DNA of 63,684 nt, counting the filler, from Reclinomonas americana ATCC 50394 (lineage: Eukaryota): the NCBI GenBank assembly GCA_048213135.1. It is 5 parts of 5 records of this genome, joined end to end, with 100 filler letters (N's around TTAATTAATTAA, not from the genome) between each part and the next. Parts side by side here need not be neighbours in the genome. Positions count along the whole stretch, not along the records: positions 48,949 to 62,064 come from PS015260.1; 4 more parts are not named here. One strand, 5' to 3'. The position numbers and the translations under genes are program-made. Under the pieces are notes generated by a model. It saw nothing but the letters and a program-made list of their open reading frames with translations. It made no database searches and had not been told where the DNA came from. Below are positions 48,905 to 62,181 of the stretch, piece by piece. The number at the start of each line of letters is the position of its first letter. Within the stretch, counting starts at the first letter, position 1.

Positions 48905-49505
48905 NNNNNNNNNNNNNNNNNNNNNNNNNNNNNNNNNNNNNNNNNNNNTGAGAGTGGCGGAACATTGACACTTCTCACACGCAGACACACACACACACAC
49001 ACAAAGACACACACGCAGACAGACACTGGCACGCGCGCGCACATACACACGCGCATACACAGACACGCGCGCACAGACACACCTCTCTCGCAAAGCGCGC
49101 CTCTCTGTGTTCGGATTCCACCACTCCGCTCGATGGACCGAGTGCAGTCAAAGTCATATCACTCACTTTGGTGGTGTGCGACATCTACTTTATCTGCAAT
49201 CATGGATTTCCTCAACACAAAGTTGCGAAGAGTGGGAACGCAGGTGGTTTTCGCGGGGGGGGGGGATGGTGATGGCGCGTGTGATATCCATGCTTTTTTC
49301 AGGGGCGCGCGCACACTGCGCTCTCTCTCTTTATGTGTGTGTGTACACATGTGTCTCTTTTCCTGTGTGCGTGTGGGTGTGCGCTTTATTTTTTTGTGCA
49401 CGGGCAAGTTCAATTGGGCCCATGCATGTGTGTGGCGCTCTCACTCTTTCTCGTTTGGCTTTTGACTTTGCGGGGTTCAATTGCAGCCACGCATCTCTGC
49501 TTCAC

Positions 49506-50056
49506 GTGCATTCACTCGTCTTCTCTCACTTTGATTGCTGGGTTCAAGTGTATTCACCACTCTTCTTCTTCTACTTCTTCTTCTTCTCACTGTACTTCAA
49601 CTGCATTCACTTTCCTTCAGGTGCATTCACTCGTCTTCTCTCACTCTGATTGCTGGGTTCAATTGCATTCACCATTTTCCCACTCGTCTTCTTCTTTCTA
49701 CTTCAACTGCATTCACTTTCCTGCAGGTGCATTCACTTGTCTTCTCTCACTTTGATTGCTGGGTTCAAGTGCATTCACCCTTCTCCACTTCTTCTTCTTC
49801 TCACTGTACTTCAACTGCATTCACTTTCCTTCAGGTGCATTCACTCGTCTTCTCTCTCTCTGATTGCTGGGTTCAATTGCATTCACCATTTTCCCACTCG
49901 TCTTCTTCTTTCTACTTCAACTGCATTCACTTTCCTGCAGGTGCATTCACTCGTCTTCTCTCACTTTGCTTGCTGGGTTCAAGTGCATTCACCCTTTGCA
50001 CTCGTCTTCTTCTTCTCACTCTACTTCAACTGCATTCACTTTCCTTCAAGTGCACT
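49506..50056. repeat. Minisatellite, five ~106-115 bp units built on a TGCATTCAC sub-repeat
   Basis: Units start gtgcattcactYgtcttctc at 49506, 49621, 49727, 49835 and 49941. Confidence 0.92.
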
Positions 50057-50432
50057 GACCCTGTTCCATCACTGTTATGCACTCGTCGTCCTCCCTCCAC
50101 CCTTTTACTTCTTTTCCCACTNNNNNNNNNNNNNNNNNNNNNNNNNNNNNNNNNNNNNNNNNNNNNNNNNNNNNNNNNNNNNNNNNNNNNNNNNNNNNNN
50201 NNNNNNNNNNNNNNNNNNNNNNNNNNNNNNNNNNNNNNNNNNNNNNNNNNNNNNNNNNNNNNNNNNNNNNNNNNNNNNNNNNNNNNNNNNNNNNNNNNNN
50301 NNNNNNNNNNNNNNNNNNNNNNNNNNNNNNNNNNNNNNNNNNNNNNNNNNNNNNNNNNNNNNNNNNNNNNNNNNNNNNNNNNNNNNNNNNNNNNNNNNNN
50401 NNNNNNNNNNNNNNNNNNNNNNNNNNNNNNNN

Positions 50433-50555
<123 letters not shown>

Positions 50556-50746
50556 TCTCATATCCAGAATGTGCACGATGGTTTCCTTTCTCAGTCTTGT
50601 CCCCCCATCATCCCGTTTGTCTCACTCGTCTCGTCCGCTCCTTCACTCCCTCCCTCACACACCTCGCTCTTCGTTGCGCGCACATGCATCTCACGCTGCA
50701 GCTGCGTCCGCCATTTTTCGTGTTTGCGTAGAGACTGGAAGGCACC

Positions 50747-53700
50747 ATGTCGCGTCCCACTCTCCTCCCCTCCACCGCAACGCGGCTGTGCCTCTTCGCA
50801 CTCTTGTCGCTGGCTGTGCTGTGCAACAGTGCAGCAGCCGCAGGTGAGTGTGTGTACTCGCGCACACGCTACGCACACTTCTGCACTCGAAAACTTTATG
50901 TTTTCTCGCGCGCACACTCTGATAGAGAGTCTTCAACGGTTCGCTCGCGCCGCAATCACATGCACATGCACACACACACATACGCGCGCGCGGCATGCTC
51001 GACCACTTGTGTGTTTGTGATTCTGTGTGGTCTCCTACATGCGTACATTCTCCAACGAACACATGTGATACCGCTGCACTGTGCGCTGCGCGCGCGCAGA
51101 AAACTTCAGTATGTCTGCCTCTTTGCGGCACTCTCCTCCTTCCCTTCTCTGTGTCTTTCCTTGCCACACTGTCTGCCTTGATTCTATTTCCGCGTTCGTT
51201 GCGCGCGAAAGTCAACCGTTGGCATGCATCTCTTTTCGCGCGCAAACTCCATTTGTTGTTCTCCCTCTCTCCTTCGTTGTTGCAGTCGTCATCTCCCCGA
51301 GCAACATCGCCATCAGAGCCGGCACCGCTGGCCAGATCGTTGACATCAGTGTCGCTGGCTCGGCCATTGCCTGGTCAACTGCCTCTACTGCCACTCTCTT
51401 CCTCGACCGCGCGTGCACTGGCGTGTCGCCCACCACTGTCGTTAACTCCAGCACCATCTCTGCTGCCTCGCTCACTTTTAATGCGTCGGGTGATGTCAAT
51501 GGTGGTGAGCGATACCTGTGCATCGACATGGACGGTGCGGGCGCGGCCGCGCGCAACGAGTTTGTCGCCACTGTGTTTGTTTGTTGCGTCTCCATCACTC
51601 TCCCTCGCCTGTGCCTCCTCCGACTGACTCCATCCTCTCCTTCCCTTCCCACCCACACGCAGACACCCTTGGTTCGCAAAACAAGTCGCCGCAGCTGGTC
51701 AATGGTCTCGCCGACTTTCGGCTGACGGTGACTGGCCAGCACTTTGCCAATCGTGAGCTGGGTGCCGGCGGGTCGTTCGGCCTGTACTCGGCCGCCGACT
51801 GCAGCGGGTCGACGGCACCAAACTCGAGCGTCACTCAGCAGTCCAGCGATCCGGCTGGTCTCTACACTGTGTTCTCGGTGGCCACTGGCGCATTGTTCGC
51901 GCAGGGTGCGCTGGGTGTGACGGCCGCCGGCTCGTGCTCGCTGGTGACACCGGGCGTGTACTATCTGTGTGGCAAGTTGCGCTGATGTGCGGGAGAGAAA
52001 GGGAAACACTCAGTAATTTGTAATCATGTGAGGTCCGCCGCCTCCAAGAGGTGTGAAGAGAGAGAAGATGAGAGAGGTTGAAAGGAAGAATATACAGGAG
52101 AAGTGAGAAGAGAAGAGAAGAGAAAAAACGGAAAGAAGAGAAGAGACGCTTGTGTGGTTCGAGTCTCGCTCCCCCCTCTGCATTCCTGATGTGCCTGCGT
52201 ACTGTTCTTCTTTCTCTTCGTGTCTCTAACGTAATCACACGGTCACTCCACTCTCCTTCTCCCTCTCGCCCCACTTCTTCCTGTCTTTTTCTTTATTCTG
52301 ATTCCTCCTCTCCTTCCTCTCCTCCTTTCCCTCTCTTTCCCTCTGCCTCTCTAACTCACTTTGCCCTTCCCCACCATCAGATTCCAGGCCGGTGGCACCA
52401 CCGTGTACCGCCTGCAACCCCTCCCGATTATTGTGACTGCCGCCTCGTCGACGCCGCTGATCTCCTTTGCCAATCCGCCCGTGCTCAAGTACGGCATTGC
52501 CAACTCGATTGTGATTGGTTCCACCACTGAGAACCTCACCGACTGCACGAGCTTCAAGCTGGTGCCGGTCGGCGTCGATTGCTCCACTCTGTCGGACTAC
52601 TCGACGCTGACGGGCAGCGTAGGCGCGTCGTTGGTGGGCGCCGGTGCCGACACGTGTGAGTTTGCGACTGGCTGCCGCGTGTTCCGCGCGACCATCACGC
52701 CAAATGGATCGAGTGGCGGCGGTGCCTACGAGTTGTGCGTGGCGGCCAACAACGGACCGTACGTGTCGTCGGGGGAGTCGTTCACTGCCGGATTCATGAC
52801 GGCCGGTGGTCTCAGTGCGAGCAGCAGCGCGGCGCCCACATCGAATCCGTTCGTCACCGACGACATGGACAGCAGCCCTGCCACCCCGACGCCGAGCATG
52901 TCAACACTGGCAGTGACGGCAACCACGATCCAGTTCACATTTGCTCGCGAGTTCTACCGCCGCCCGCGCGTGTTGCTCGGCTTTGCCAGTGTCAGTCGTC
53001 AGGGCGCCGCTGGCCCAATTTCCACTCTTGCCGACGATCCGACTGACGGCACGTTTGCATTCTGTGCGGAGCCGGTGGTGACTGTGGCGCAACTGTCGAC
53101 TCGATGCCATGGCGTGTCAAGTGACGGCCAGCTGGGACCCACCATCACGCTGAGTTGCGTTCACTACGATAATGGACAAGGCATTGATGTATGTGGCTCA
53201 TCATCTTCCCTCCGCTTTGCTGCATGTGCAGGCTACCTGGCGTACTATGTGCATCAGACGAATGCTCTGTCGATGGACGGTCAGCGCACGCTGGCAAGCG
53301 CAGCGTGGGCGTCGGATGCGGTAAACAAGAACAGCTCAACTGTTGCGTGATTTTTGTGAATCCTCGTCTCTCTCGCGACTGCTCATCCAGCTTACTCCGT
53401 ATCATGCACAGTTGGTGAGTGTGTCGTCCACGTACCAGTTTGCGTCGGTGCCAGCCGTTCCCGTGGCCGTGATCGGTGTAATGTCGATGCGGCAGTCGGC
53501 TGCCGGCAATGATGGACGCGTTCGCGGCGATAATTTTTCGGTGACAAGCAGCTCAGCCTCGCGCTCGAGTTTCGTCATCAAGGGCACGGTGAGCAGCGAC
53601 TCACGCATTGAAGCGATGTCGGCACGCTTTGCGGTGGCACCGACACGCGCCGACAGCACCAACAACAGCGGATTTGTCATGCTGTCGGGAGGTGCGTTCT

Positions 53701-56700
53701 CAACCTCCACTTTGGTTGGAGCGACATCAGGTTGTCTCTGTGTCTGACCCGTGCGTGTGGTGCAGAGACGACGCACACCGGCAGCACGACGATGCAGACC
53801 GCCAGTCTGGTGACGGCGTCGACACCGAATGGCCTGCTGCGCGCCACCATCAGTGTGCAGCTGTTCCTGCGTGGGTGGAAGTCGTCTGCAATCACAGTGC
53901 AGAACCGCATCGACAAGCAGTCGCTACAGTTCACCACGAAGCGCCTCGGCAACGAGTACTATGTGACGGCGATCTCGTACGGCGCCAGCGGGGCCGACGC
54001 GTCTGACATTGAGTTCGTGACGTGGGTGGCGATTGGTCGTGCGGCGCAAGGCGCGCCGATCTCGTGCCCTGTCGGCTACAGCGGCTCCAACTGCGGCGTG
54101 TGCACGCTGCCCGACGGTACCACGACGTGCTCACTGAACCGACGTGCGGTGCTGAGCTGTGCCTACGGCACCACTCAGATTGTTGCTGAGTGTGCCGAGG
54201 GTCGCGAGTGCTTTGAGGCTTACGGCTCGGCGCAATGTGGATGCTCGGCGAACGGTGCTGTGTGCTTGAATGGTGGCGACTGCTGCTCTGGTAGCTGTGA
54301 TTCTGGTCTGTGTGTGTCAGCGTGCAGTCCAACCACCACGTGCTCTGGTCATGGAACGTGCAAGAGCGACGGAACGTGCCAATGCGATACCGACTATTAT
54401 GGTGCATCGTGCAATGTGAACTGTGTGGCATCCTCGACGTGCTCCGGCAACGGAGCTTGTAAGAGTGACGGCACTTGCCAGTGCAACAACAACTATTACG
54501 GTGCCTCATGCAATGTGAACTGCGTGGCGGGCACGACGTGCTCGGGCCACGGAACGTGCAAGACAGACGGTACGTGTCTGTGCACGGGCGACTACACCAA
54601 TGCCAGCTGCAACTGCAGTCCCACTGCGACGTGCTCCGGCCACGGAACGTGCAAGACCGATGGAACATGCCAGTGCACGGGCGACTACACCAATGCCAGC
54701 TGCAACTGCAGTCCCACTGTGACGTGCTCTGGTCATGGAACTTGCAAGACTGACGGCACATGCCAGTGTGACATCGGGTATATCAGTGCATCGTGCAATG
54801 AGACCTGTGTGGCAGCAACGGCATGCTCTGGTCACGGATCGTGCAACGTCGATGGATCGTGCCAGTGCGATGCTGACTACTACGGTTCATCGTGCAACGT
54901 GAACTGTGTGGTGGCCACAACGTGCTCTGGTCACGGAACGTGCAAGACTGACGGCTCGTGTCAGTGCGACACTGACTATTACGGTGCATCGTGCAACGTG
55001 AACTGCGTGGCGGCGACCACGTGCTCTGGTCACGGAACGTGCAAGACTGACGGCTCGTGTCAGTGCGACACTGACTATTACGGTGCATCGTGCAACGTGA
55101 ACTGCGTGGCGGCCACCACGTGCTCCAGCAACGGAGCTTGTAAGAGTGACGGCACTTGCCTGTGCACGGGCGACTACACCAACNNNNNNNNNNNNNNNNN
55201 NNNNNNNNNNNNNNNNNNNNNNNNNNNNNNNNNNNNNNNNNNNNNNNNNNNNNNNNNNNNNNNNNNNNNNNNNNNNNNNNNNNNNNNNNNNNNNNNNNNN
55301 NNNNNNNNNNNNNNNNNNNNNNNNNNNNNNNNNNNNNNNNNNNNNNNNNNNNNNNNNNNNNNNNNNNNNNNNNNNNNNNNNNNNNNNNNNNNNNNNNNNN
55401 NNNNNNNNNNNNNNNNNNNNNNNNNNNNNNNNNNNNNNNNNNNNNNNNNNNNNNNNNNNNNNNNNNNNNNNNNNNNNNNNNNNNNNNNNNNNNNNNNNNN
55501 NNNNNNNNNNNNNNNNNNNNNNNNNNNNNNNNNNNNNNNNNNNNNNNNNNNNNNNNNNNNNNNNNNNNNNNNNNNNNNNNNNNNNNNNNNNNNNNNNNNN
55601 NNNNNNNNNNNNNNNNNNNNNNNNNNNNNNNNNNNNNNNNNNNNNNNNNNNNNNNNNNNNNNNNNNNNNNNNNNNNNNNNNNNNNNNNNNNNNNNNNNNN
55701 NNNNNNNNNNNNNNNNNNNNNNNNNNNNNNNNNNNNAAGACAAACGGCACGTGTCTCTGCACCGGCGACTACACCAACGCCAACTGCAACTGCAGTCCCA
55801 CTACAACATGCTCTGGTCACGGTACATGCAAGACAAACGGCACGTGTCTGTGCACGGGCGACTACACCAACGCCAGTTGCAACTGCAGTCCCACTGTGAC
55901 GTGCTCTGGTCACGGTACATGCAAGACAAACGGCACGTGTCTGTGCACGGGCGACTTCACCAATGCCAACTGCAACTGCAGTCCCACTGCGACGTGCTCT
56001 GGCCACGGAACGTGCAAGACAAACGGCACGTGTCTGTGCACCGGCGACTTCACCAATGCCAGCTGCAACTGCAGCCCGAGCGTCACGTGCTCTGGTCATG
56101 GAACGTGCAACACCGATGGAACGTGCGCTTGTACAATTGCATGGAATGGTGAGCAATGCTGCTTTTTCTTGACTGTCTGTGAATGCTCATATTCTTTGTT
56201 GTGCATAGGGCCCGCGTGCTCAACCTGCTCTGGCAATCCTGTTGTTTCGCTCGGATACATTGGCAACTGGGCAACCTTGGCCTCCAGCAGTGACGGCACC
56301 AAACTGGTGGCTAGAGGGAGTGGCAGTGGTCGGATCTTCACCTCCACTGATAGCGGTGCGACGTGGACAGCACGCGAGTCCAGTCGCAGTTGGAGTGGGG
56401 TGGCATCCAGCAGTAGCGGCACCAAATTGGTGGCTGTGGTTTTTAATGGTCAAATCTACACGTCTGTCGACTCTGGCGTGACGTGGACGGCTCGTGATTC
56501 CAACCGCGCATGGATCTCAGTAGCCTCCAGCAGTGACGGAACCAAGCTGGTGGCGGTGGTGGACGGTGGTCAGATTTACACTTCCACGGACTCCGGCGCA
56601 ACGTGGACGCCTCGTGAATCCAATCGCCAGTGGTGGTCAGTGGCCTCCAGCAGCGATGGCACCAAACTGGTGGCTGTGGTGAACATTGGTCCGATTTACA

Positions 56701-57923
56701 CCTCCACTGACTCTGGCGTAACATGGACAGCTCGAGAGACCAATCGCCCTTGGCAGTCAGTGGCCTCCAGCAGTGACGGCACCAAATTGGTGGCTGTTAC
56801 AGTTGGAGGTAAGATTTACACCTCAACCGACTCTGGTGCAAATTGGACAGCTCGTGACTCCAATCGCAGTTGGCAATCAGTGGCCTCCAGCAGTGACGGC
56901 AGCAAGCTCGTGGCTGTGGTGAATGGTGATCAGATTTACACTTCCACTGATTCTGGGGTGACATGGACGCCTCGTGATTCCACTCGTGCGTGGCTATCAG
57001 TAACCTCTAACAGTGACGGCACCAAGTTGGTGGCTGGGATTCGCAGCGGGCAGATGTATACCTCCACTGACTCTGGCGTGACGTGGACTGGGGTGACTTC
57101 CGAAGGGCTACATGGGTCGAGTACCTGGCGGGCAGTGGCCTCCAACAGTGACGGCACCAAGCTTGTTGCAGCTGTGCAAGGGGGTCAGTTGTATACCTCC
57201 GCTGACTCGGGCGTGACGTGGACGCCTCGTGAGTCCAGTCGCGGTTGGCAATCAGTGGCCTCTAGCAACGATGGCACCAAGCTGGTGGCTGTTGCACGCA
57301 ATAATCGGATCTACACCTCCACTGACTCTGGCGTGACGTGGACTGCTCGTGATTCCGCTCGCCTCTGGACTGCAGTGGCCTCCAGCAGTGACGGAACCAA
57401 GTTGGTGGCTGTGGTGAGCGGTGGTCAGATCTACACCTCCACTGACTCTGGTGTGACATGGACGGCTCGTGGATCCAGTCGTAACTGGACTGCAGTGGCC
57501 TCCAGCAGTGACGGAACCAAGTTGGTGGCTGTAGCAAGCTCTGATCAGATCTACACCTCCACTGACTCGGGCGTGACATGGACGGCTCGTGATAGCATTC
57601 GCAACTGGACTGGAGTGGCCTCCAGCAGCAATGGCACCAAGCTGGTGGCTGTTGAGCAGTTTGGCCAGATCTACACTTCCACTAACTCGGGTGTGACGTG
57701 GACGCCTCGTGATTCCAGTCGCGGCTGGACTGCAGTGGCCTCCAGCAGTGACGGCACCAGGCTTGCGGCTGTTGCAGGTAGCGATCAACTGTACATCTCC
57801 ACTGACTCTGGTGTGACGTGGACGCCTCGTGATACCAGTCGCGGCTGGCTGTCAGTGGCCTGCAGCAGTGCCGGCATCAAGCTCGTGGCCGGTGCGGATC
57901 AGGTGTACACTTTCCCGTGTTGA
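50747..57923 (+). CDS. Large secreted protein: signal peptide, beta-rich N-terminal domains, H-type-lectin-like domains, long EGF-like array, C-terminal 14-blade Asp-box (BNR) beta-propeller region
   Basis: MSRPTLL..LCLFALLSLAVLCNSAAA signal; EGF units CSGHGTCKTDGxCxC of 31 and 33 aa; 40-aa repeats WxSVASSSDGTKLVAVxxxGQIYTSTDSGVTWTxR; ends FPC*. One internal gap at 55184-55736. Confidence 0.85.
54320..56148 (+). repeat. Coding tandem array of 93-bp and 99-bp EGF-like units
   Basis: A 99-bp period is seen at 54923/55022 and a 93-bp period at 55748/55841. Confidence 0.9.
56265..57923 (+). repeat. Coding tandem array of 120-bp propeller-blade units (13 complete plus 1 truncated)
   Basis: gtggcctccagcagtgacggcaccaag..tacacctccactgactctggcgtgacgtggac recurs every 120 nt. 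Confidence 0.95.
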
Positions 57924-58620: not shown

Positions 58621-58809
<189 letters not shown>

Positions 58810-58835
58810 ATCAATGTCGCTCCCTTGCCTCACAG

Positions 58836-59003
58836 GCCAGACCGCAGACCGCTCTCTGGAGATTGCCACGGCCGTGCAGAACATGCTGGGCCTGGAGACA
58901 CAGATGCATTTGACCTGTGCCGCATACCCCGAGGAGCAAGTCAAATCGGCCCTGACACGCGCGTACGACGCTGGTGTGCGCAATATTTTTGCGCTGCGTG
59001 GTG
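58836..59003 (+). CDS. MTHFR: Single internal exon of methylenetetrahydrofolate reductase
   Basis: cacag|GQTADRSLEIATAVQNMLGLETQMHLTCAAYPEEQVKSALTRAYDAGVRNIFALRG|gt. The ETxMHLTC and GxxNIxALRG motifs are typical of eukaryotic MTHFR. Confidence 0.88.
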
Positions 59004-60127
59004 GTGTGTTGTTGTGGATGATGATGCTGGCAGCTGGATCCACATTCCTTTGCTCACCTCCCTTGATTCTTATTATTCGGCAGCGCCCCAGCCCGACACG
59101 ACTGCCACTTTTCGGTTCGCCATCATTCTCCTCTCACATTTTTTCATCCTTGTCTGCTTGCTTCTCCTGAATAAATTGTCTTTTATTTTTGTAGTCTTGT
59201 CCCCCTTCCCCGCTTCTCTCTCATCTCCCTTCATCATTCTTCTTCTCCCTCGTCGTGCTCCCGACCTCTGACTTCCCTCTCTCTATCTCTCAGTGCTCTG
59301 CTCCCGCTGATTCAAGCACATGGATGATCGGTACTGCTGTTCACTCGCTGGTGTGTTGGTCTCTTCTCGCCTTCCCCCCTCTTCTCATTGCCATTCACAG
59401 AACCTTGATAATTTGNNNNNNNNNNNNNNNNNNNNNNNNNNNNNNNNNNNNNNNNNNNNNNNNNNNNNNNNNNNNNNNNNNNNNNNNNNNNNNNNNNNNN
59501 NNNNNNNNNNNNNNNNNNNNNNNNNNNNNNNNNNNNNNNNNNNNNNNNNNNNNNNNNNNNNNNNNNNNNNNNNNNNNNNNNNNNNNNNNNNNNNNNNNNN
59601 NNNNNNNNNNNNNNNNNNNNNNNNNNNNNNNNNNNNNNNNNNNNNNNNNNNNNNNNNNNNNNNNNNNNNNNNNNNNNNNNNNNNNNNNNNNNNNNNNNNN
59701 NNNNNNNNNNNNNNNNNNNNNNNNNNNNNNNNNNNNNNNNNNNNNNNNNNNNNNNNNNNNNNNNNNNNNNNNNNNNNNNNNNNNNNNNNNNNNNNNNNNN
59801 NNNNNNNNNNNNNNNNNNNNNNNNNNNNNNNNNNNNNNNNNNNNNNNNNNNNNNNNNNNNNNNNNNNNNNNNNNNNNNNNNNNNNNNNNNNNNNNNNNNN
59901 NNNNNNNNNNNNNNNNNNNNNNNNNNNNNNNNNNNNNNNNNNNNNNNNNNNNNNNNNNNNNNNNNNNNNNNNNNNNNNNNNNNNNNNNNNNNNNNNNNNN
60001 NNNNNNNNNNNNNNNNNNNNNNNNNNNNNNNNNNNNNNNNNNNNNNNNNNNNNNNNNNNNNNNNNNNNNNNNNNNNNNNNNNNNNNNNNNNNNNNNNNNN
60101 NNNNNCGCGTAGAGACTGGAAGGCAAC

Positions 60128-62064
60128 ATGTCGCGTCCCACTCTCCTCCCCTCCACCGCAATGCGGCTGTGCCTCTTCGCGCTCTTGTCGCTGGCTGTGC
60201 TGTGCAACAGTGCAGCAGCCGCAGGTGAGTGTGTGTACTCGCGCACACGCTACACACACTTCTGCACTCGAAAACTTTATGTTTTCTCGCGCGCACTCTG
60301 ATAGAGAGTCTTCAACGGTTCGCTCGCGCCGCAATCACGTGCACATGCACACACACACACATACGCGCGCGCGGCATGCTCGACCACTTGTGTGTTTGTG
60401 ATTCTGTGTGGTCTCCTACATGCGTACATTCTCCAACGAACACATGTGATACCGCTGCACTGTGCGCGCGCGCAGAAAACTTCAGTATGTCTCTGCCTCT
60501 TTGCGGCACTCTCCTCCTACCCTTCTCTGTGTCATTCCTTGCCACACTGTCTGCCTTGATTTTATCTCCGTGTTCGTTGCGCGTGAAAGTCAACCGTTGG
60601 CATGCATCTCTTTTCGCGCGCAAACTGCATTTGTTGTTCTCCCTCTCTCCTTCGTTGTTGCAGTCGTCATCTCCCCGAGCAACATCGCCATCAGAACCGG
60701 CACCGCTGGCCAGATCGTTGACATCAGTGTCGCTGGCTCGGCCATTGCCTGGTCAACTGCCTCCACGGCCACTCTCTTCCTCGACCGCGCGTGCACTGGC
60801 GTGTCGCCCACCACTGTAGTTAACTCCAGCACCATCTCTGCTGCCTCGCTCACTTTTAATGCGTCGGGTGATGCCAATGGTGGTGAGCGGTACCTGTGCA
60901 TCGACGTGGACGGTGCGGGCGCGTTTGCGCGCAACGAGTTTGTGGCCACTGTGTTTGTCTGTTACGTCTCCATCACTCTCCCTCGCCTGTGCCTCCTCCG
61001 ACTGACTCCATCCTCCCATTCCCTTCCCGTCCACGCAGACACCCTTGGCTCACAGAGCAAGTCGCCGCAACTGGTCAATGGTCTCGCCGACTATCGCCTC
61101 ACGGTGACAGGTCAGCACTTTGCCAATCGTGAGCTGGGTACTGGCGGCTCGTTCGGCCTGTACTCGGCCGCCGACTGCAGCGGGTCGACGGCACCAAACT
61201 CGAGCATCACTCTGCAATCCAGCGATCCGGCTGGTCTCTACACTGTGTTCTCGGTGGCCACTGGCGCATCGTTCGCGCAGGGTGCGCTGGGTGTGACGGC
61301 CGCCGGCTCGTGCTCGCTGGTGACACCGGGCGTGTACTATCTTTGTGGCAAGTTGCGTTGATGTGCGGGAGAGAAAGGGAAACACTCAGTAATTTGTAAT
61401 CATGTGAGGTCCGCCGCCTCCAACAGATGTGAAGAGAGAGAGAGAGAGGAGAAGAGTTGAGACGAGAAGACAAGGTGAGAGAGGTTGAATGGAAGAGAAG
61501 AGAAGAGAAAGAACCGGAAAAAGAGAAGAGACGCTTGTGTGATTCGAGTCTCGCTATANNNNNNNNNNNNNNNNNNNNCCCTCTGCATTCCTGATTTGCC
61601 TGCTACCGTTCTTCTTTCTCTTCGTGTCTCTAACGTAATCACACGGTCACTCCACTCTCCTTCTCCTTCTCGCCCGACTTCTTCCTCCCTTTTTGCTTTA
61701 TTCCGATTCCTTCTCTCCTTCCTCTCCTCCTTTCCCTCTCCGTCCCTCTTTCCTCCATCCTCCGTCTCTCTAACTCACTTTTGCCCTCCTCTACCATCAG
61801 ATTCCAGGCCGGTGGCACCGCCGTGTACCGCCTGCAACCCCTCCCGCTCATTGTGACTGCCGCCTCATCGGCACCTGTGGTTTCCTTTGCCAATCCGCCC
61901 GTGCTCAAGTACGGCATTGCCAACTCGATTGTGATTGGTTCCTCCACTGAGAACCTGACCGACTGCACGAGCTTCAAGCTGGTGCCGGTCGGCGTCGATT
62001 GCTCCACTCTGTCGGACTACTCGACGCTGACGGGCAGCGTTGGCGCGTCGTTCGTGGGCGCCGG
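60128..62064 (+). CDS. Close paralog (5' part) of the 50747-57923 gene; truncated by the scaffold end
   Basis: The first four exons and their introns are near-identical to the upstream copy (e.g. VISPSNIAIRTGTAGQIVDISVAGS, FQAGGTAVYRLQPLPLIVTAASS). Confidence 0.88.
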
Positions 62065-62108
62065 NNNNNNNNNNNNNNNNNNNNNNNNNNNNNNNNNNNN
62101 NNNNNNNN

Positions 62109-62120
62109 TTAATTAATTAA
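62109..62120. other. Artificial scaffold linker TTAATTAATTAA
   Basis: Same 12-mer between N runs. Confidence 0.95.
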
Positions 62121-62181
62121 NNNNNNNNNNNNNNNNNNNNNNNNNNNNNNNNNNNNNNNNNNNNAGAAGGAGAGACAGAGA

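Follow-up and report, generated by a model that had tools for sequence, protein, structure and literature searches.

A predicted double Asp-box propeller on a probable EGF stalk in Reclinomonas americana, with the constant frame and variable positions of its family

In the HNWD system described by Paoletti et al. (PMC1805685), genes with a NACHT architecture carry repeats that are up to 100% identical through concerted evolution and that vary in number among isolates, and four codons are reported to be under positive selection. Asp-box propellers are defined by the motif S-x-D-x-G-x-T-W in loop 3-4 of successive blades (PMC9218822, PMC2716378). As laid out by Quistgaard and Thirup (PMC2716378), the top face of these propellers, which is the functional one, is where the inner strands have their N-terminal ends and where loop 2-3 lies, with loop 1-2 and the Asp-boxes on the bottom face; in the known Asp-box glycosidases treated there, the catalytic and binding residues lie in loop 2-3. 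Highly repetitive Asp-box propellers make up about 5% of the survey of recently amplified propellers by Pereira and Lupas (PMC9218822), and ‘beta-propeller lectins’ on collagen shafts have been predicted in the fibres of contractile injection systems (PMC12923769). Here we describe an array of 40-residue repeats encoded on the plus strand, at positions 56262-57923 of a 63,684-nucleotide stretch of DNA from the protist Reclinomonas americana ATCC 50394 (assembly GCA_048213135.1). This stretch, five parts of the genome joined end to end, is called the window below, and the array lies in the part taken from PS015260.1. A first-pass annotation of the array had proposed a secreted analogue, on an EGF stalk, of the fungal HET-E/HNWD WD40 propellers, which generate new specificities by repeat shuffling.

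We propose that the array is the head of a secreted stalk protein, a double Asp-box propeller that probably binds a ligand through its top face. Its blades would be old copies with a scaffold under purifying selection, rather than a recently homogenised, shuffling array. The striking pattern of an invariant scaffold and a hypervariable face would then be inherited from a very large family, and we see no sign of a local diversity-generating process.

Results

Repeat anatomy

We identified one long open frame on the plus strand, ending at 57923, that translates into 13 complete repeats of 40 residues and a fourteenth unit of 27 residues. Tandem Repeats Finder reported a 120-bp period with 13.3 copies over 56278-57889 (score 1179). 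A degenerate DNA pattern covering D-S-G-x-T-W-T in the repeat matched 13 times, all within 56349-57823, where 0.23 matches were expected; none of 100 shuffles reached 13. Each complete repeat, and thus 13 of the 14 units, bears an Asp-box of the form S-x-D-S-G-x-T-W. Unit 1 starts one codon earlier than the register of the others (at 56262) and contains one extra loop residue, giving 41 residues. Unit 14 comprises three strands without an Asp-box and terminates in ...QVYTFPC-stop. Blade 7 is followed by five extra codons (57105-57119), part of the segment GVTSEGLHGSS. The period, the motif count against shuffles and the translation all agree that the repeats seen in the first pass are real, and the longer linker it placed after blade 7 is there as well, as extra codons and as a low-confidence linker in the model. 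Its 14 blades of 40 residues arranged 7+7 are borne out in their arrangement, by the strand blocks of the model and by matches to tandem seven-bladed propellers, and need correcting in blade length (41 residues in blade 1, 27 in blade 14).

The short blade 14 (57840-57920) lacks the fourth strand together with the Asp-box, and contains two cysteines, one in strand 1 and the other as the last residue of the protein. In a bacterial homolog (P0004), both propellers end in a similar ...Y(T/A)SEC and begin with a cysteine before the first strand. These termini hint at a disulfide clasp that closes the ring.

Predicted fold and superfamily

The AlphaFold2 model, built with 24 homologs, has a mean pLDDT of 89 and a pTM of 0.60. 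It contains two blocks of strands, at residues 20-295 and 306-569, separated by a low-confidence linker at 297-302; residues 1-18 have pLDDT values below 50. Four-stranded blades in a closed propeller were found in the predicted structure. The best Foldseek matches in the PDB are tandem seven-bladed propellers at probability 1.00, which, with the two strand blocks, upholds the 7+7 reading. Ranked by E-value, GH74 enzymes come top (6p2l, 8e-26); ranked by TM-score, the leading structures are Pwp2, Aip1 and 2ymu, with the tandem WD40 propeller 5i2t at a TMq of 0.80.

Pfam searches of the repeats returned Sortilin-Vps10 (1.5e-24), BNR (2.4e-13) and BNR_6 (2.8e-8). The NCBIfam family NF045728 (F510_1955 ‘glycosylhydrolase’) was matched at 1.2e-39 in five partial stretches, with 136 bits against a curated cut-off of 175. 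Among PDB sequences, matches were found to GH74 xyloglucanases (3.3e-8, with part of the chain aligned), to the designed Cake propellers and to Ycf48. Taken together, the Asp-box motif, the Pfam and PDB matches, the model and Foldseek indicate a predicted 7+7 double propeller of BNR/Asp-box blades and not an analogue of WD40. The WD40 comparison made in the first pass thus fails at the level of the superfamily. By their similarity to proteins annotated with PF25852 or PF15902, the repeats are assigned to the Sortilin-Vps10-like/DUF6242_C class (PF25852).

Two more specific assignments were considered and rejected. A Vps10 (sortilin) domain proper needs ten blades and a 10CC module, whereas here we find 7+7 blades, nothing after blade 14, and partial matches to PF15902 in six stretches (for example, profile positions 3-110 of 446). 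Membership in Ycf48/HCF136 is not indicated either, as PF14870 (PSII_BNR) is not among the 12 Pfam families found at E-values up to 0.1.

A constant frame with variable columns

Realignment of 13 blades revealed 10 invariant columns. Column entropy is highest at column 20 (2.93 bits), followed by columns 2 (2.87), 4 (2.72), 40 (2.19), 19 (2.14), 21 (2.04) and 5 (1.74). This agrees with the near-invariant scaffold described in the first pass, with variation beside the first Trp of the blade and in the loop after LVA.

The same pattern is found across the family. The family consensus equals that of R. americana (RNW.SVASS.DGTKLVAVV.GGQIYTSTDSGVTWTAR.S.), and columns 2, 4, 19-21 and 40 vary throughout. 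Column entropies in the 13 blades correlate with those in 537 canonical blades of 118 other proteins (Spearman 0.82), a comparison in which some columns are fixed by the pattern used to extract blades. By these sequence comparisons, the division into scaffold and variable columns is a property of the family and not of this locus. Against 1644 foreign blades, mean identity is 0.583, compared with 0.689 among the blades of the protein itself, and 12 of the 13 blades have a foreign match equal to or better than their best internal one. An internal identity of 0.689 is ordinary; the family median is 0.632, and 28% of 166 proteins reach or surpass this level.

Homolog arrays aligned in 830 registers showed a mean identity of 0.20 at the variable columns, with a maximum of 0.43, and scaffold identities of up to 0.9. 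The variable columns are thus essentially random between proteins, the similarity being carried by the shared consensus, and each member examined has face residues of its own. High identity to bacterial and phage proteins is then expected, because the frame is shared and strongly constrained. An orthologous propeller in the same register elsewhere was searched for and rejected, since 0 of the 830 registers exceeded 43% identity at the variable columns. We also rejected duplication of a whole propeller (blade i against blade i+7); six such pairs are 67-82% identical, not above the overall mean, and identity at the variable columns is 0.10 at a shift of seven.

The strand string of the model gives the topology of a unit. 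Strand 1 is W-x-x-V-A-S, loop 1-2 is S-S-D-G-T and strand 2 is K-L-V-A-V; a tight turn at columns 19-22 leads to strand 3 (Q-I-Y-T-S), the Asp-box, strand 4 (T-W-T-A-R) and a crossover of five residues. Combining this strand order with the published definition of the faces (PMC2716378), columns 2, 4 and 5 at the start of strand 1, columns 19-21 in loop 2-3 and columns 38-40 in loop 4-1 would all lie on the top face. The earlier proposal that the variable sites share one face is in keeping with this blade topology.

Divergence, selection and exchange among blades

The blades are on average 73% identical in DNA (range 62-87%), with identities of 0.80, 0.78 and 0.62 at codon positions 1, 2 and 3. 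Nei-Gojobori estimates over all pairs give a dS of 0.71 and a dN of 0.23, and dS lies at 0.65-0.71 across estimates. The scaffold has a dN/dS of 0.15 in pairwise comparison and 0.19 in tree-based counting, with a deficit of replacements at p = 2e-16. At the variable columns, dN/dS is 0.75-0.87 pairwise under all definitions and 0.94-0.99 by tree-based counting, values that are biased upward by the choice of these columns for their variability and that come from a comparison between blades of one protein, with limited power. An excess of replacements was found in 0 of 40 columns (smallest p 0.21, tree-based counting). The first-pass annotation had named site-wise dN/dS at or below 1 as one half of what would speak against diversification, and the variable sites behave in that way. 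The test excludes recent strong diversification, not ancient diversification, which is outside its reach, given nearly saturated sites and a comparison made among blades.

A GENECONV-like permutation test identified a single significant tract: the adjacent blades 10 and 11 match at 28 polymorphic sites in a row, a length reached in 17 of 2000 permutations. Blades 10-13 share the codons TGG ACT GCA/GGA GTG. The WT(A/G)V variant noted in the first pass is therefore real in blades 10-13, and blades 10 and 11 are the one pair with a tract longer than expected from the permutations.

A large family in bacteria and viruses

A word-indexed protein search returned 5189 matches among 8000 scored candidates. 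The top matches are 58-75% identical over one propeller and 40-55% over both (E-values 1e-214 to 1e-117), and most are annotated with PF25852, named DUF6242_C in the Atlas output, and/or PF15902. With propeller 1 as the query, HMMER matched 35,229 of 1.84 billion cluster representatives at E-values up to 1e-3, 16,115 up to 1e-10 and 4,323 up to 1e-30. Matches with a named source are bacterial genomes from metagenomes, including Flavobacteriales, Verrucomicrobia, Opitutae, Burkholderiaceae and Paceibacterota. Propellers in the family have seven blades and often occur in tandem. Many homologs are auto-named ‘photosystem II stability/assembly factor-like’, and a literature search on DUF6242 found nothing on function.

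Further domains detected among ten homologs scanned are a phage tail Collar, Peptidase_S74 (endosialidase chaperone), Collagen and DUF7151, and two homologs match PHROG tail-fibre families. In viral contigs, relatives are encoded at 47 loci. The closest is a stand-alone propeller of 311 residues (locus L001, 5908-6843), 73% identical to propeller 1 and adjoining minor-tail-protein genes on a 130-kb viral contig. Among its six blades, identity is 86% in DNA (up to 95%) and 82% at third positions, with most of the differences at the same variable columns. A recently amplified, face-variable array is a better description of this phage gene than of the R. americana gene; the phage blades show that fresh amplification occurs in the family, though not in the gene studied here.

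Six loci on contigs labelled GVMAG (giant-virus metagenome genomes) encode relatives 37-57% identical to propeller 1. One of them (L007, 4393-7296) is a BNR open reading frame of 967 residues with 17 Asp-boxes, beside DnaJ and RFC-like genes.

Fusion to an EGF stalk

The segment 55737-58124 is ungapped and holds four EGF modules, a 60-nt intron, the 1.66-kb open frame and the 3' flank, so that the fusion of EGF modules to the propellers is not an artefact of scaffolding. In the scan of 728 residues, which took in the propellers as well, Pfam identified EGF_Teneurin (3.1e-11) and EGF_TEN over the part before them. At least 13 EGF modules are visible in an array broken by a gap of 553 N. Removal of the 60-nt intron yields C-x-C-x3-W-x-G-x2-C-x2-C, with the spacing of the EGF modules of a related protist protein (P0242); if retained, the intron would add 20 residues with four extra cysteines. 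The open reading frame stops right after blade 14, with no hydrophobic tail. Given the signal-peptide-like first exon (50748-50844), the EGF modules and the lack of a C-terminal anchor, the protein is very likely secreted and carried on an EGF stalk, in keeping with the first pass.

In the 120 long relatives that matched the propeller best, no EGF family was detected, and 120 long proteins found with the EGF part as the query, which were teneurins, tenascins and protist proteins, contained no true propeller of this class. Likewise, none of 42 viral Asp-box open reading frames contained an EGF-like pattern, and a literature search on BNR and EGF fusion, protists and horizontal transfer returned nothing relevant. 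The EGF and propeller searches show the best-scoring part of very large match sets, and absence is weakly supported by them; with that weight, the joining of an EGF stalk to a DUF6242_C-type double propeller appears to be an architecture not found elsewhere in the searches made. One long EGF protein flagged with PF25852 (P0289) was tried as a second example and rejected, being of the Kelch/attractin type by Pfam, with a blade similarity of E 0.016 in BLASTP.

Gene model and surroundings

The features of the putative gene are collected in Table 1. Joining exon 1 to exon 2 keeps the frame into ...VVISPSNIAIRAG. No Pfam family was found in the N-terminal modules (51286-53350, searched in four pieces) at E-values up to 0.01, and the Atlas lead, to an unnamed eukaryotic cluster, is weak (score 0.75). 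Their Y-x-C motifs (YYLC, YLC, YELC) lie about 100 residues apart and are reminiscent of Ig-like sandwiches.

Table 1. Features of the putative propeller gene in the window
Feature	Positions	Strand	Basis
Putative exon 1: ATG in cacc-ATG context, signal-peptide-like hydrophobic stretch, GTGAGT donor	50748-50844	+	Sequence, frame translation; splicing inferred
Putative intron 1: GTGAGT, polypyrimidine tract, TTGCAG (51280-51285)	50845-51285	+	Sequence; inferred
N-terminal beta-rich modules with recurring Y-x-C motifs; several exons, borders approximate	51286-53350	+	Open frames
Cys-rich segment, then first part of the teneurin/tenascin-type EGF array with 9 CSGHG-like modules	54062-55183	+	Pfam EGF_Teneurin 1.7e-33, EGF_TEN 4e-31; Tandem Repeats Finder period 99 and 93
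Assembly gap (553 N) inside the EGF array; frame differs on the two sides, true length indefinite	55184-55736	.	Sequence
EGF array, part 2; 4 modules of 31 residues, contiguous with the propeller exon	55737-56148	+	Tandem Repeats Finder 93 bp x 4.0 copies, 90% matches; Pfam EGF_Teneurin, EGF_TEN
Putative 60-nt intron within the last EGF module, in frame (GTGAGC...CATAG)	56149-56208	+	Sequence
End of last EGF module and short linker	56209-56261	+	Translation; low model confidence
Propeller 1: Asp-box blades 1-7 (blade 1 of 41 residues, the rest of 40)	56262-57104	+	Repeat alignment, model, Foldseek
Five extra codons between the propellers (part of GVTSEGLHGSS)	57105-57119	+	Translation; model confidence low at residues 297-302
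Propeller 2: blades 8-13 complete, blade 14 short (27 residues, three strands, no Asp-box, two Cys)	57120-57920	+	Translation, model
TGA stop; no hydrophobic C-terminal segment before it	57921-57923	+	Sequence

The propeller has a GC content of 0.58 and a GC3 of 0.62, and neighbouring coding parts have 0.58-0.64 and 0.52-0.72, respectively. Codons ending in CG are rarer in the propeller (56262-57920) than in the upstream exons (52355-56148), with TCG at 0.04 versus 0.29, GCG at 0.09 versus 0.30 and ACG at 0.25 versus 0.41. This difference could reflect a foreign origin, or the copying of codons between repeats.

Directly upstream of the gene start, at 49500-50073, are tandem copies about 110 bp apart that are 85-94% identical. 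A second copy of the 5' part of the gene (50726-52644, with the exon for the signal peptide, intron 1 and the N-terminal modules that come first) lies downstream at 60107-62064, 92% identical in DNA over about 1970 bp. This copy ends at the gap at 62065-62164 without having reached an EGF or propeller part, and the sequence on the far side of the gap is unrelated. The copy may represent a tandem paralog or a partial duplicate, or else an artefact of scaffolding. Just downstream of the gene lies a perfect (CT)93 microsatellite (58621-58807), followed by an open frame at about 58830-59170 on the plus strand that may be a fragment of a methylenetetrahydrofolate reductase, which it resembles. Further long CT/GA and CA/TG runs occur in the window, which contains 22 runs of N, as in a gappy draft of a repeat-rich eukaryotic genome.

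Discussion

We suggest that a eukaryotic gene at about 50748-57923 encodes a secreted modular protein and that the region is its 3' exon. The predicted order is a signal peptide, N-terminal modules without a known family, a long stalk of teneurin/tenascin-type EGF modules and, as the head, two tightly linked seven-bladed Asp-box (BNR) propellers made of minimal 40-residue blades. Conserved residues would form the strands, loop 1-2 (SSSDG) and the Asp-box in loop 3-4, holding the fold on the bottom face. Variable residues beside the Trp of strand 1, in loop 2-3 and in loop 4-1 would make up a top face that is specific to each blade and asymmetric, and the most likely function of this face is to bind a glycan or a protein as its ligand. 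In prokaryotes and viruses, propellers of the same class are mounted on collagen, Ig, cadherin or phage tail-fibre shafts. A role in recognition is plausible.

Several points weigh against this reading. The placement of variable columns on the top face comes from the DSSP strand order and the published topology, not from measured distances, and a pTM of 0.60 leaves the mutual orientation of the two propellers uncertain. The N-terminal part is linked to the propeller exon by scaffolding across the 553-N gap, and the introns and the single-transcript model derive from sequence. Secretion and ligand binding are likewise predictions from the sequence and the model. The variable sites, with a pN of 0.59 and a pS of 0.62, are close enough to saturation that positive selection in the past is possible. 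Finally, some Atlas clusters and family members are auto-named glycosyl hydrolase, and an enzymatic role is possible.

The first pass favoured a module of the HET-E/HNWD kind, in which concerted evolution, shuffling and positive selection on a few surface codons act in this lineage. Such a module would account for variable columns that are few and, by topology, on one face, for variable residues matched by no homolog, and for the DNA variant common to blades 10-13 with its tract in blades 10/11 (global p about 0.009); freshly amplified blades also exist in the family, in the phage gene. However, a DNA identity of 73%, with 62% at third positions and a dS of 0.65-0.71, is far from the values of up to 100% reported for HNWD (PMC1805685), and replacements are not in excess at any of the 40 columns, with dN/dS at 0.75-0.99 despite the choice of columns for variability. 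Twelve of the 13 blades are matched as well or better by foreign blades, internal identity is ordinary and the pattern is family-wide, and Pfam found no WD40 or NACHT family, or other signalling domain, in the 728 residues scanned or the upstream parts. We therefore consider local diversification of this kind very unlikely. A dN/dS of about 1 at the variable columns is also what unconstrained sites would give, and the head might be a rigid structural or spacing module of a matrix or cell-coat protein, without specific recognition and with the variable columns as free loops; no ligand is known for any close relative, and the literature on DUF6242 is silent on function. Yet phage tail-fibre and bacterial fibre architectures repeatedly have relatives at their distal end, and the top face is the functional one in the solved Asp-box propellers described by Quistgaard and Thirup (PMC2716378), which makes a purely structural head improbable.

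Alternatively, the double propeller may act enzymatically, as a GH74-type or sialidase-type glycoside hydrolase that attacks a polysaccharide from its EGF stalk. The best PDB matches in both sequence and fold are GH74 xyloglucanases, themselves tandem seven-bladed Asp-box propellers, and the F510_1955 match and the auto-given names of some Atlas clusters point in the same direction. That NCBIfam match, however, falls below its cut-off and is broken into partial stretches; identity to GH74 is 14-19% at a TMq of about 0.5 and a sequence E-value of 3e-8, and the matched GH74 chains have 685-771 residues against 552 here. Moreover, loop 2-3, where the catalytic and binding residues of known Asp-box glycosidases reside (PMC2716378), is here only 2-4 residues long and not conserved in the family, and an enzyme seems rather unlikely to us. 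Most improbable of all would be a propeller exon that is no working part of the gene but bacterial or viral contamination, a chimeric assembly or a recent, decaying horizontal transfer. The nearest relatives with a named source are all prokaryotic, others lie in viral contigs, and no eukaryotic source label (eukprot, mmetsp) occurs among the 240 best propeller matches, although such labels were seen in the EGF search; CG-ending codons are rarer in the propeller, and the assembly is a gappy draft. Against this, the sequence runs ungapped from four EGF modules to the 3' flank, GC and GC3 are close to those of the neighbouring coding parts, and 553 codons are open with a strongly constrained scaffold.

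The family to which the head belongs deserves attention. Its cluster representatives run to tens of thousands, and it has hardly been studied. In its behaviour it resembles a natural binder scaffold built on a constant frame, in which no two members examined share face residues, and the R. americana gene would be a case of this DUF6242_C-type scaffold fused to a eukaryotic EGF stalk. We speculate, as a doubtful but not far-fetched extension, that a free-living flagellated protist took up a receptor-binding propeller like those on phage tail fibres, bacterial surface fibres and giant-virus proteins and grafted it onto its own teneurin-type EGF stalk, creating a lectin-like receptor, secreted or in the cell coat, for prey bacteria or other cells. 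The whole DUF6242_C-type family might then be a binder scaffold with about seven face positions per blade, varying from member to member, that is exchanged across bacteria, viruses and eukaryotes.

Comparison with known systems

The closest counterparts are the DUF6242_C-class propellers of bacteria, phages and giant viruses, which share the 40-residue blade, the consensus, the variable columns and the seven blades, with 58-75% identity over one propeller. They differ in the shaft; in R. americana a eukaryotic array of teneurin-type EGF modules takes its place, encoded by a gene with introns. The lectins on collagen shafts predicted for contractile-injection-system fibres (PMC12923769) may be regarded as analogous to a propeller on an EGF stalk, a comparison by build and not by propeller family. 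GH74 xyloglucanases (PDB 6p2l, 6p2o, 2cn2 and 1sqj) likewise have tandem seven-bladed Asp-box propellers in one chain; similarity at the level of the family and the long loops of the substrate cleft were not found here, identity is 14-19%, and the GH74 chains are some 130-220 residues longer.

The Podospora HNWD proteins (HET-E, HET-D and HET-R) resemble the R. americana protein in that the scaffold of their repeat propeller is constant and a few codons vary on the face used for interaction (PMC1805685). In contrast, they are cytosolic NACHT receptors with WD40 repeats, not a secreted EGF protein with Asp-boxes, and their repeats, as described by Paoletti et al., reach 100% identity, vary in number and are under proven positive selection, compared with 73% DNA identity and a dN/dS at or below 1 here. 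Ycf48/HCF136 (PDB 2xbg and 5ojr) and the designed ‘Cake’ propellers (6tjg-6tji) have seven to ten blades and can be detected by sequence at E-values of 1e-4 to 3e-3. The similarity is weak (2e-3 for the Ycf48 chains) and without a PSII_BNR match, and nothing suggests a role in photosynthesis.

Teneurins arose by fusion of a bacterial toxin-like module to EGF repeats. Like the protein proposed here, they have EGF repeats of the teneurin type followed by a C-terminal head of bacterial affinity that contains a beta-propeller. The R. americana protein has no NHL propeller, YD shell or Tox-GHH, and in its draft gene model it begins with a signal peptide instead of a type II anchor. Should the uptake of a fibre-type propeller by this protist prove true, the gene would be an independent replay of the origin of teneurins.

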